Below are positions 1 to 6,074 of a DNA stretch of 64,000 nucleotides, one piece after another. The DNA is from Escherichia phage vB_EcoM_112: sequence record NC_024125.2. One strand, given 5' to 3'. The notes under the pieces were generated by a model, which was given only the letters and a program-made list of their open reading frames with translations, had not been told where the DNA came from and did no database searches. Both the position numbers and the translations under genes were made by a program. How positions within the stretch are numbered: the stretch's first letter is position 1; every line of letters starts with the position of its first letter.

Positions 1-147
1 ATCTATACGAAGTGTGCAGTACTGTTTAAGTAATTCTTCAAATGGCGGGATATATTCGTTTTTACAAATTTCTTCTACTCTAGCATCAGAATGGTGTGTA
101 AAAGCATTCATCAGGGATAGATAAGGACCAGTTAAAAATGTTCTCAT
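1..147 (-). CDS. hypothetical protein, N-terminal part (gene runs off window start)
   Basis: Minus-strand ATG at 147..145, open reading frame to position 1 (MRTFLTGPYLSLMNAFTHHSDARVEEI...); not in ORF track because incomplete. Confidence 0.3.
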   Translation of the reverse strand, partial: MRTFLTGPYLSLMNAFTHHSDARVEEICKNEYIPPFEELLKQYCTLRID

Positions 148-287
148 TTCTTCTCTCTAAGTTTGGGCCGTTCCATGGCGCATGAATTGTCCATTTCTGT
201 ATTTACCCATTACCGCACTTAGGCTCGACCTTATTACAGGTTGGCGGGAATCCCTCATAGAATCATGAGGTCCAGGTTGTTCCCATA

Positions 288-761
288 TTATTTGAACGAT
301 TTAACGTACTGAATAGAACCTTTACTATTCACAAAGGCAATTTTACCATTTTTATTATACATGGTAGCAGTACGTTGATAGCCATAAGTTTGTTTACCAG
401 ATTGATAACCAACTAATGCGAAATTATCTTCACCCATTTTATTCTGTTTAGCGCGAATGCGTTCATGACCATGTACCATAAGAACCTTAGCATCACCAGT
501 TGCAATGGATCTACGAGTTTTTTCATCTTCAACTGTATTAACAAAGTCGTCAAATGAATCAAATTTAGCATGAGATTTATTATACAGTTTTCCATCTACT
601 GCATAATTATATCCTTGTACATCCATCTCAACTTCTGTACCATCATCCAGTACAGCAGTGATTTTCTGTCCTTTTTTAAATTTCAAAAGATCAGTAAAAG
701 ATTCAGCAATAATTTGAGAATTAATAGCTGCTTCAGTAATAAATTCTTGATATGTTTTCAT
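288..761 (-). CDS. internal-protein-like capsid-targeted protein (157 aa)
   Basis: N-terminus MKTYQEFITEA matches T4 internal-protein capsid targeting sequence consensus; AAGGA RBS upstream; sits downstream of e where T4 has ipII/ipIII. Confidence 0.7.
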   Translation of the reverse strand: MKTYQEFITEAAINSQIIAESFTDLLKFKKGQKITAVLDDGTEVEMDVQGYNYAVDGKLYNKSHAKFDSFDDFVNTVEDEKTRRSIATGDAKVLMVHGHERIRAKQNKMGEDNFALVGYQSGKQTYGYQRTATMYNKNGKIAFVNSKGSIQYVKSFK

Positions 762-855: not shown

Positions 856-1824
<969 letters not shown>

Positions 1825-5762: not shown

Positions 5763-6074
5763 CCTTGCGGCAACCTTGTCGGGGTTCCACCTGCTAAGGC
5801 AAGTGTTTGTACGAAACGCCGGGATTCGAACCCGGTTATCAAGCAGTTGACGCTACTCAATATTTTAAAAGGCCATATCTCGACCATATCCGAACGTTCC
5901 GTCAAAAACGCTACTCGGCTTACGGCAAAGATATTTCCTCGAATCGATAATTCGGTGCGCCGTTTCTGCTGTGATGTAAGGGGATATTAACAAATCGTAA
6001 AGATTTATTAAGACCAGTCCTTACTCAGGGAACATCAGTCCGACGACTTACCGGTAGCGACCCGGTTTCTTGTC
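5763..6074 (-). ncRNA. candidate stable small RNAs (T4 rnaC/rnaD-like region)
   Basis: 312 bp with no ORF between tRNA-Arg and a terminator; minus strand has tRNA-like T-arm CCGGG-TTCGAAT-CCCGG near 5815..5835; T4 encodes two stable RNAs next to tRNA-Arg. Confidence 0.4.

Follow-up and report, generated by a model that had tools for sequence, protein, structure and literature searches.

The first 287 nucleotides of the window, that is, of the 64,000-nt stretch of Escherichia phage vB_EcoM_112 DNA (NC_024125.2) analysed here, raise the question of which gene is cut by the window edge and what lies between this gene and the next one. A first-pass annotation had described a minus-strand open reading frame (ORF) that starts at 147 and continues beyond position 1, separated by 140 bp from the gene at 288..761. 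Both statements agree with the sequence. Translation of the reverse strand of 1-147 gives the quoted peptide MRTFLTGPYLSLMNAFTHHSDARVEEICKNEYIPPFEELLKQYCTLRID with no stop codon, and since the next minus-strand gene lies at 288..761, the gap extends over 148-287, or 140 bp. The genes at this end of the window are the following.

1..147, minus strand: first 49 codons of vs.8, with the ATG at 147-145 and about 130 codons beyond the window edge; identical to Maryam and RB14
288..761, minus strand: gene of the internal virion protein Ip4 (the "CTS gene" of the first-pass annotation), 157 aa, MKTYQEFITEA..., assigned by Pfam, PHROG and the RB14 annotation
856-1350, minus strand: T4-type lysozyme gene e

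On balance, it seems somewhat probable that the locus is explained by two features together: the ORF is the start of vs.8, and the gap encodes on the minus strand an RNA of about 88 nt that would act as a stable RNA in trans. The parts of this explanation differ in strength and are described separately below.

By sequence comparison, the partial ORF is the start of T4 gene vs.8 (NP_049732; PHROG 1488). A megablast search with positions 1-900 matched 713 phage records, the best of which were Escherichia phage vB_EcoM_Maryam (99.8%) and RB14 (98.4%), both belonging to Tequatrovirus. The ORF is annotated as vs.8 in RB14 and T4, where it lies between vs.7 and the Ip/denV block. The gene order of the closest genomes, vs.7-vs.8-(denV/Ip)-e, is also found here: e and Ip4 precede vs.8 on the minus strand, and the relatives go on with vs.7 and vs.6. 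The frame is real, as its 49 codons are identical to the start of the 179-aa Maryam gene and to RB14. When the ORF was extended leftwards by means of these relatives and searched at full length, as the first-pass annotation had proposed, a 179-aa product was obtained, which is 98% identical to T4 vs.8 and matches phrog_1488 with an E-value of 4e-79. A stop just past the window edge, which would have spoken against a gene, was not seen; the relatives read on for 130 more codons. The ORF had been left unassigned and regarded as possibly an accessory gene whose body lies outside the window. The body does lie outside, but the gene is vs.8 according to the annotation of the relatives. Since vs.8 is a known and conserved T4 gene, it is not a novel accessory gene, and the vs.8 fragment alone is ordinary.

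The start codon of vs.8 was located from the family alignment. The annotated lengths are 179 aa in Maryam (with the same start as the ATG in the window), 189 aa in RB14, and 219 aa in T4. PHROG 1488, which has 177 positions, aligns to residues 43-219 of T4 vs.8. Among 1.84 billion cluster representatives, the vs.8 profile found only 41 relatives, mostly of 163-185 aa and aligned from about the third residue. Both PHROG 1488 and these 41 family representatives begin at the Met of the ATG at 147 (MRTF). On this alignment evidence, the ATG at 147 is the true start of vs.8.

The product of vs.8 is predicted to be a single-domain RecA-like P-loop ATPase of about 179 aa, specific to T4-like phages. 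In a tblastn search (1,008 records), vs.8 was confined to T4-like enterobacterial phages. The Walker A (GGRQSGKS) and Walker B (ILYIIDEP) motifs, both of which are located past the window edge, do not vary across the family alignment and conform to the GxxxxGK[ST] and hhhhDE patterns of the ASCE P-loop NTPases, and the predicted fold is RecA-like alpha/beta. The structure predicted from a deeper alignment has a pLDDT of 87; a first model from 13 sequences, with a pLDDT of 49, was discarded. The ASCE P-loop domain type is shared with the large terminases (T4 gp17) and with the RecA1 domain of the SF2 DEAD-box helicases, to which the identity is 8-21%. Unlike these proteins, vs.8 consists of this one domain (about 179 aa) and has neither a nuclease domain nor a second RecA domain. 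Sequence searches of the PDB and NCBIfam with vs.8 gave nothing significant, and a literature search on "vs.8" returned only clinical "vs. 8" noise. It should be mentioned that vs.8 is labelled "endoribonuclease/RegB" in some records, apparently a wrong label that has been propagated.

On the other side of the gap, the product of 288-761 matches Pfam DUF7412 (E 3e-95) and PHROG 3155, "internal virion protein", and is annotated as Ip4 in RB14. It begins with the capsid-targeting sequence MKTYQEFI. Its match to T4 ipII is weak, with 31% identity over 77 aa. No homologue of denV or ipIII was found by tblastn anywhere in the 64 kb. The slot of denV differs among the relatives: the order is ipII-denV-vs.8 in T4 and e-denV-Ip4 in teqhad.

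The gap had been called untranslated. Positions 148-287 are indeed untranslated here, but they are more than a spacer, as they carry a conserved structured RNA-like element. The G+C content is 0.46 in the gap and 0.49 in the element, compared with 0.36 in the window. From the comparisons described below, the element is very probably a conserved functional structured RNA, neither coding sequence nor spacer. Three further features of the gap bear on its relation to vs.8.

157..258, minus strand: 33-codon ORF (MRDSRQPVIRSS...) within the RNA element; its frame is that of vs.8 and is closed by TAG; judged not to be a gene
148..159, minus strand: purine-rich stretch resembling a Shine-Dalgarno sequence (GAGAG at 157-153, within UAGAGAGAAGAA preceding the AUG), including the in-frame TAG at 159-157
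167..179, minus strand: small hairpin GCC-AUGGAAC-GGC with GGA in the loop, between the element and the ribosome-binding site of vs.8 (RNAalifold, groups A/B)

The stretch at 148..159 presumably serves as the Shine-Dalgarno sequence of vs.8, judging from its composition and position. The hairpin at 167-179 is found in T4-like phages only; its stem is invariant and covariation is absent, so that its status is weak.

Could the gap be coding sequence that has decayed? In that case, the N-terminal 40 codons annotated in T4 would be real, they would have been lost here to the amber codon or would be read by suppression, and the similarity would reflect descent. In an alignment with T4, RB14, Maryam, and teqhad, the gap shares about 95% identity with the initial 120 nt of vs.8 as annotated in T4. 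The 33-codon ORF at 258-157 corresponds to the annotated N-terminus of the 219-aa T4 protein and is parted from the vs.8 frame only by the TAG, where T4 has TAT. T4 also carries a 9-bp duplication near this TAT, and RB14 and teqhad have a 1-nt insertion there. However, the frame is open through the gap in T4 only, that is, in one of the 22 Tequatrovirus-type loci; in six of the 22, a TAG stands three codons ahead of the ATG, and in 15 the frame is shifted by 1-nt indels. Furthermore, the vs.8 family profile and the distant homologues begin at MRTF, the element sequence is also present in phages without vs.8, and no suppressor is found among the tRNAs of the window. The "N-termini" that gene callers have placed in the gap are of at least four kinds, mutually unrelated. 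No conserved translated frame was found in the gap and no ORF is common to groups B-E; Pfam and PHROG searches with the 33-codon ORF gave no match. Decay of a coding sequence is thus largely refuted by these comparisons, and we regard it as extremely improbable. Since a stop or a different frame is found in 21 of the 22 Tequatrovirus loci, the 40-codon extension of T4 vs.8 (219 aa, running through the RNA element) is probably a mis-annotation. Amber read-through or a leader peptide was also considered for the 33-codon ORF and rejected, as close relatives have different frames and the groups share no ORF.

The vs.8 annotations run into the element in different frames, with 219 aa in T4 (L003 2294-2413) and 189 aa in RB14 (L001 4148-4177). 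A 195-aa vs.8 cluster with 1,051 member sequences is likewise extended into the RNA element (proteins P0001 and P0010). The N-terminal extensions of vs.8 in T4, RB14, and more than 1000 database entries (195 aa) probably stem from faulty annotation.

The RNA element was mapped in the window as follows.

197..284, minus strand: conserved structured RNA element, 88 nt (model R2, pair counts, permutation tests)
284-280 / 250-246, minus strand: Pa, GGGAA/UUCCC
275-273 / 199-197, minus strand: pseudoknot (PK), CUG/CAG
270-265 / 258-253, minus strand: P1, CCUCAU/AUGAGG
200..250, minus strand: nearly invariant three-way-junction core, consisting of P3-P2-P4 and the junction nucleotides (core model R1)
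245-243 / 207-205, minus strand: P3, GCC/GGU
241-238 / 231-228, minus strand: P2, ACCU/AGGU, with the loop GUAAUA
227-225, minus strand: J, CGA
224-222 / 217-215, minus strand: P4, GC(C)/(U)GC
214-208, minus strand: GGUAAUG

When read on the minus strand, the element has in all groups a 5' hairpin, Pa, whose loop or internal loop pairs with nucleotides just past the core and forms the pseudoknot. An extra hairpin, P1, lies inside Pa in some groups, including the window, and is absent in group E. The three-way junction is closed by P3 (3-5 bp) and contains P2 (a hairpin, ACCU-GUAAnA-AGGU), CGA, P4 (a short hairpin, GCC-nAAGy-GC), and GGUAA. The junction and P2 are nearly invariant and read A-ACCUGUAAnAAGGU-CGA-GCCnAAGyGC-GGUAA. 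The spacer before the 3' strand of the pseudoknot is 1-8 nt long with no conserved C, and is AAAUA in the window. Only 3 nt separate the stop codon of Ip4 from the base where pairing in the element starts.

Compensatory changes in the alignments support this arrangement of the P3/P2/P4 three-way junction, the 5' hairpin Pa, and the pseudoknot. Across the alignments, 89-92% of the cells were paired, compared with 73-83% after shuffling (0/500) and 27-47% when the partners were slid. In A4, which comprises 25 natural sequences from RB69-, Moon-, and Karam-type phages aligned by plain MAFFT, the value was 92.2%, compared with 83.3% for column shuffles (0/500) and 31-47% for partners slid by 1-3 columns. 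Eight pairs were changed on both sides in this alignment, and the pseudoknot covaries at four of its five pairs (CG, UA, AU, and GC). In A5, which comprises 43 non-redundant cores from all groups, the two central P3 pairs, 7-45 and 8-44, are 100% paired, using CG, GC, UA, AU, and GU. In A8, which comprises 39 family-wide sequences aligned by fitting to model R2, 89.2% of the cells were paired, compared with 72.9% in shuffles (0/500), and Pa covaries at all five pairs. In addition, an alignment-free permutation test, in which a sequence's own duplexes were compared with those formed with other sequences, gave 0/2000 for P3, 0/5000 for Pa, and 0/5000 for the pseudoknot. G-U pairs occur on the minus strand only (A4 and A5), which fixes the sense of the element.

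The covariance models gave the same picture. R2 is a full-length model built only from RB69/Karam-type sequences. Almost all the other groups tested gave a full-length match to it (38 of 39 matches span the whole model), and in the window it matches 188-285 on the minus strand (51.9 bits, E 1e-10). The core model R1 has a single significant match in the 64 kb, at 250-200 (70.4 bits, E 2.4e-19). The helices are not equally supported. There is one compensatory case in P2 and there are three in P4; P2 and the first two pairs of P4 hardly vary, so that they are neither supported nor refuted by covariation. The third pair of P4 is usually unpaired, and the pseudoknot in the window has only 3 bp. 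The single-sequence folding energy of 140-290 was, for both strands, no better than that of shuffled sequences (z of -0.19 for the minus strand, and -1.44); this says little, because the fold is short and pseudoknotted and the folding tool models no pseudoknot. A GAAA-tetraloop-receptor reading of CCUAAG...UAAUGG was rejected, as the U is variable.

The element is widespread among phages. A sensitive blastn search with 140-290 matched 997 phage records, with one location per record, and a core of about 37 nt is almost invariant across these roughly 1000 records. About 40 nt (205-248 of the window) are 90-95% identical in phages unrelated to T4, as well as in T4-like genera of Klebsiella and Citrobacter. 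The carriers of the core beyond the close relatives include Vequintavirus (nimi, slur16, and rV5), Klebsiella and Citrobacter phages, and Pseudomonas phage PsgM04F; the matched region in such records is almost always unannotated. Exact-pattern scans of IMG/VR and metagenomes added more types, including 46-kb Klebsiella siphoviruses (DP01/BUCT541-like) and unclassified contigs. Among the T4-like phages, the vs.8 protein falls to 36-45% identity, whereas the RNA core is unchanged.

Cellular genomes gave a different result. No element was found in 5,426 complete E. coli genomes. One match, to the core only, was found among the E. coli records on a 137.6 kb "plasmid", which, judging from its size and from this core-only match, is probably an rV5-like phage genome. 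Among 185,579 bacterial and archaeal species, represented by one genome each, only chance matches in GC-rich coding DNA were seen. These sequence surveys show the element to be restricted to phages. Pattern matches in GC-rich MAGs and soil contigs were discarded as chance matches, since they lie inside coding sequence and are without the upstream half of the core. Matches in "Campylobacter phage" records were not counted as evidence of breadth, since these records are rV5-like.

Several groups carry variants of the element. Two tandem copies are present in some phages (L045 5077-5304, L047 8967-9195, L090, L101, and L102). The second copy has a divergent core (e.g., AAGGCCAGUCCGCGACGGUAA), and its P4 covaries (GUC/GAC and GCC/GGC). 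In the type of the 46-kb Klebsiella siphoviruses (L038, L040, L041, L046, and L103), the element lies within an extra 8-bp stem (GUUGUGAC/GUCACAAC) and is flanked by the motif AGTGCYCTTWYCGTTGTGR, which is repeated through the tRNA array; the array of L040 includes a tRNA with the CUA anticodon, resembling an amber suppressor. In the rV5-type loci, including nimi (L013 1870-1990), a structured insertion of about 70 nt follows the core and is itself followed by a consensus TTGACA-17-TAAAAT promoter. In a second group of Vequintavirinae, the element is flanked by the motif CCCYUAGAGGGCUUGAnAGUGC.

The genomic context falls into two patterns. In 12 of the 17 non-T4-like loci, tRNA genes on the same strand lie 46-720 nt from the element. 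In nimi and PsgM04F the element is within or beside a tRNA gene array, on the strand of the tRNAs. In the T4-like loci, it is at most 100 nt upstream of the vs.8 homologue and about 5.5 kb from the tRNA cluster. It lies between denV and the vs.8 homologue in Citrobacter phage Merlin. In L043 and L105, hairpins resembling terminators come after the element, which in L105 is also preceded by a promoter-like site. Within the gap 148-287 of the window, neither a promoter-like nor a terminator-like site was found, so that the element here is simply intercistronic mRNA.

The element was compared with known RNAs. Rfam 15 (4,227 models) was searched at E<=10 with the window and with short inputs from four other phage groups, and no model matched the element; with permissive settings, the five inputs gave only chance snoRNA or leader matches outside it. 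Neither ARAGORN nor the Rfam tRNA model recognised the element as a tRNA or tmRNA. A published bulk catalogue (PMC10690425) lists 8,495 candidate structured RNAs from IMG/VR, and may already contain the element anonymously. A literature search with sequence words of the core returned unrelated primers only. Three other resemblances were rejected. An RNase P minihelix (Pa and GCCA) is not formed, since the "CCA" belongs to P3 (GCC/ACC) and the junction A, and it is absent in groups B, C, and D2. Mimicry of the tRNA-Tyr anticodon loop by P2 was dismissed, as the "anticodon" positions of the loop are variable. The retron anti-defence factor "Rad", found in T5-like tRNA regions, is a 189-aa protein and not an RNA.

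T4 itself has stable RNAs, "species 1 and 2" (rnaC and rnaD), which belong to its tRNA cluster. To our knowledge, these are the only non-tRNA stable RNAs known in T4, and they are still unexplained. Like the element, they are small structured phage RNAs that travel with tRNA genes. There is no homology between them, however, and R1 has no match in the tRNA region at 5.8-7.4 kb. In this region, ARAGORN reports at 5809-5902 (minus strand), beside the eight-tRNA cluster, a 94-nt "tRNA-Lys(ttt)" that was unconfirmed by the Rfam tRNA model at its gathering score; this is probably one of the T4 stable RNAs (species 1/2) and not a tRNA.

What the element does has to be considered against the properties that the sequence comparisons establish: its conservation, strand, and fold with compensatory changes, its single copy, its restriction to phages, and its frequent residence in tRNA clusters. 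We tentatively take it to be a trans-acting stable RNA, slightly more in doubt than in confidence, since this role is deduced from the genomic context. The nearest rival is that the element acts in cis as the 5' leader of vs.8, either as a sensor of the riboswitch kind or as a translational operator, and that elsewhere it would regulate whichever gene comes next. The position of the element in the T4-like loci examined fits such a leader, because it is kept within 100 nt of the vs.8 homologue even where the proteins are only 36-45% identical, and in the window the element and vs.8 are not separated by a promoter. As in the three-way-junction aptamers of riboswitches, a near-invariant junction is combined with covarying stems and a long-range pseudoknot or tertiary lock, features typical of ligand binding, and in L043 a ribosome-binding site and an ORF come within about 35 nt after a terminator-like hairpin, an arrangement resembling a terminator-type expression platform. 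Nevertheless, the downstream genes are unrelated across the phage groups: they are vs.8 in the T4-like phages only, and tRNAs, a promoter, or unrelated ORFs elsewhere. Unlike riboswitches, the element therefore has no consistent regulated gene class or expression platform. The copies of Klebsiella and Pseudomonas phages are between tRNA genes, the promoter read from the sequence in the rV5-like phages (TTGACA-17-TAAAAT) parts the element from the next gene, and in L026 an Ip gene, inserted between the element and vs.8, follows the element instead of vs.8. Moreover, an alternative pairing with the Shine-Dalgarno sequence of vs.8 was not found by eye. A cis-acting leader seems unlikely.

A self-cleaving or processing RNA, either a ribozyme or a nuclease entry site, which would cut polycistronic or tRNA-cluster transcripts, is less likely still, and we consider it improbable. 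HDV-like "theta" ribozymes adjoin phage tRNAs and have been proposed to cut tRNA-cluster transcripts. The element shares with HDV-like ribozymes the nested double-pseudoknot order of helices: Pa < PK-5' < P1 < Pa-3' < junction domain < PK-3' corresponds to P1 < P2 < P3 < P1' < P4 < P2'. Proximity to phage tRNAs is frequent in both; tRNA genes adjoin the element in many phages, and in L104 and L093 it lies as close as 5-16 nt past the 3' end of a tRNA. In the T4-like phages, the element is exactly intercistronic. On the other hand, no Rfam ribozyme family matched, even at E<=10 on short inputs, and the equivalent of J4/2, 1-8 nt long, is without a conserved catalytic C. The P1.1/L3 signature is also lacking, and the equivalent of P3/L3 is absent in group E. 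The conservation of the element is concentrated in the equivalent of P4, a domain that is dispensable in HDV-like ribozymes. Conservation at the DNA level is yet less probable, and we give it very little credence. The sequence would then serve the hyperplastic Ip/denV region as a recombination linker or regulatory cassette, or it would act as a promoter or bind a protein. PeSLs are promoter-early stem-loop cassettes of the hyperplastic regions of T4-type phages, with several near-identical copies per genome, all of which carry an early promoter. Like a PeSL, the element is at the edge of a variable region, forming a fixed border where Ip genes and denV come and go, and a promoter is annotated over the rV5 copy. 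It differs from PeSLs in being far more conserved, in its presence in non-T4 phages, and in having no early-promoter match; as it is single copy and promoterless, it is not a PeSL cassette. Furthermore, compensatory changes keep the helices, and the G-U pairs would be A-C mismatches on the opposite strand. Its orientation always follows the tRNAs or the flanking genes.

If the element is a stable trans-acting RNA, as we tentatively prefer, a course of events can be proposed from its surroundings. In the T4-like phages, it would be transcribed within an early or middle polycistronic message, because the gap is without a promoter-like or terminator-like site. In other phages, it would be made from tRNA-cluster transcripts or as a small transcription unit of its own. 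It might then persist as a compact stable RNA acting in trans. The invariant junction might form a surface or pocket that recognises a partner shared by many hosts; this could be a conserved protein or RNA of the cell, or a small molecule. In the T4-like phages, the fixed place before vs.8 may add a cis effect on the expression of vs.8. The element may accordingly represent a new class of functional phage RNA. Its three-way junction, locked by the pseudoknot, would offer an invariant pocket for a target that many hosts have in common, and T4-like, rV5-like, and other phages with tRNAs would carry it in their tRNA-cluster toolkit. Our confidence in this proposal is a little below even.

Thus, the RNA in the gap appears to belong to an uncharacterised family, of which T4 itself has a member. 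If this is true, the copy of T4 has been overlooked for decades inside the mis-annotated N-terminus of vs.8. It would be a second structured RNA in one of the best-studied viruses, and would be directly testable with the existing genetics of T4. The element is more conserved than the surrounding proteins, is common to unrelated phage families, and is linked to tRNA clusters, which are increasingly regarded as counter-defence arrays. The near-invariant junction points to a specific partner, which could turn out to be a host target, a ligand, or a ribozyme of a new kind.
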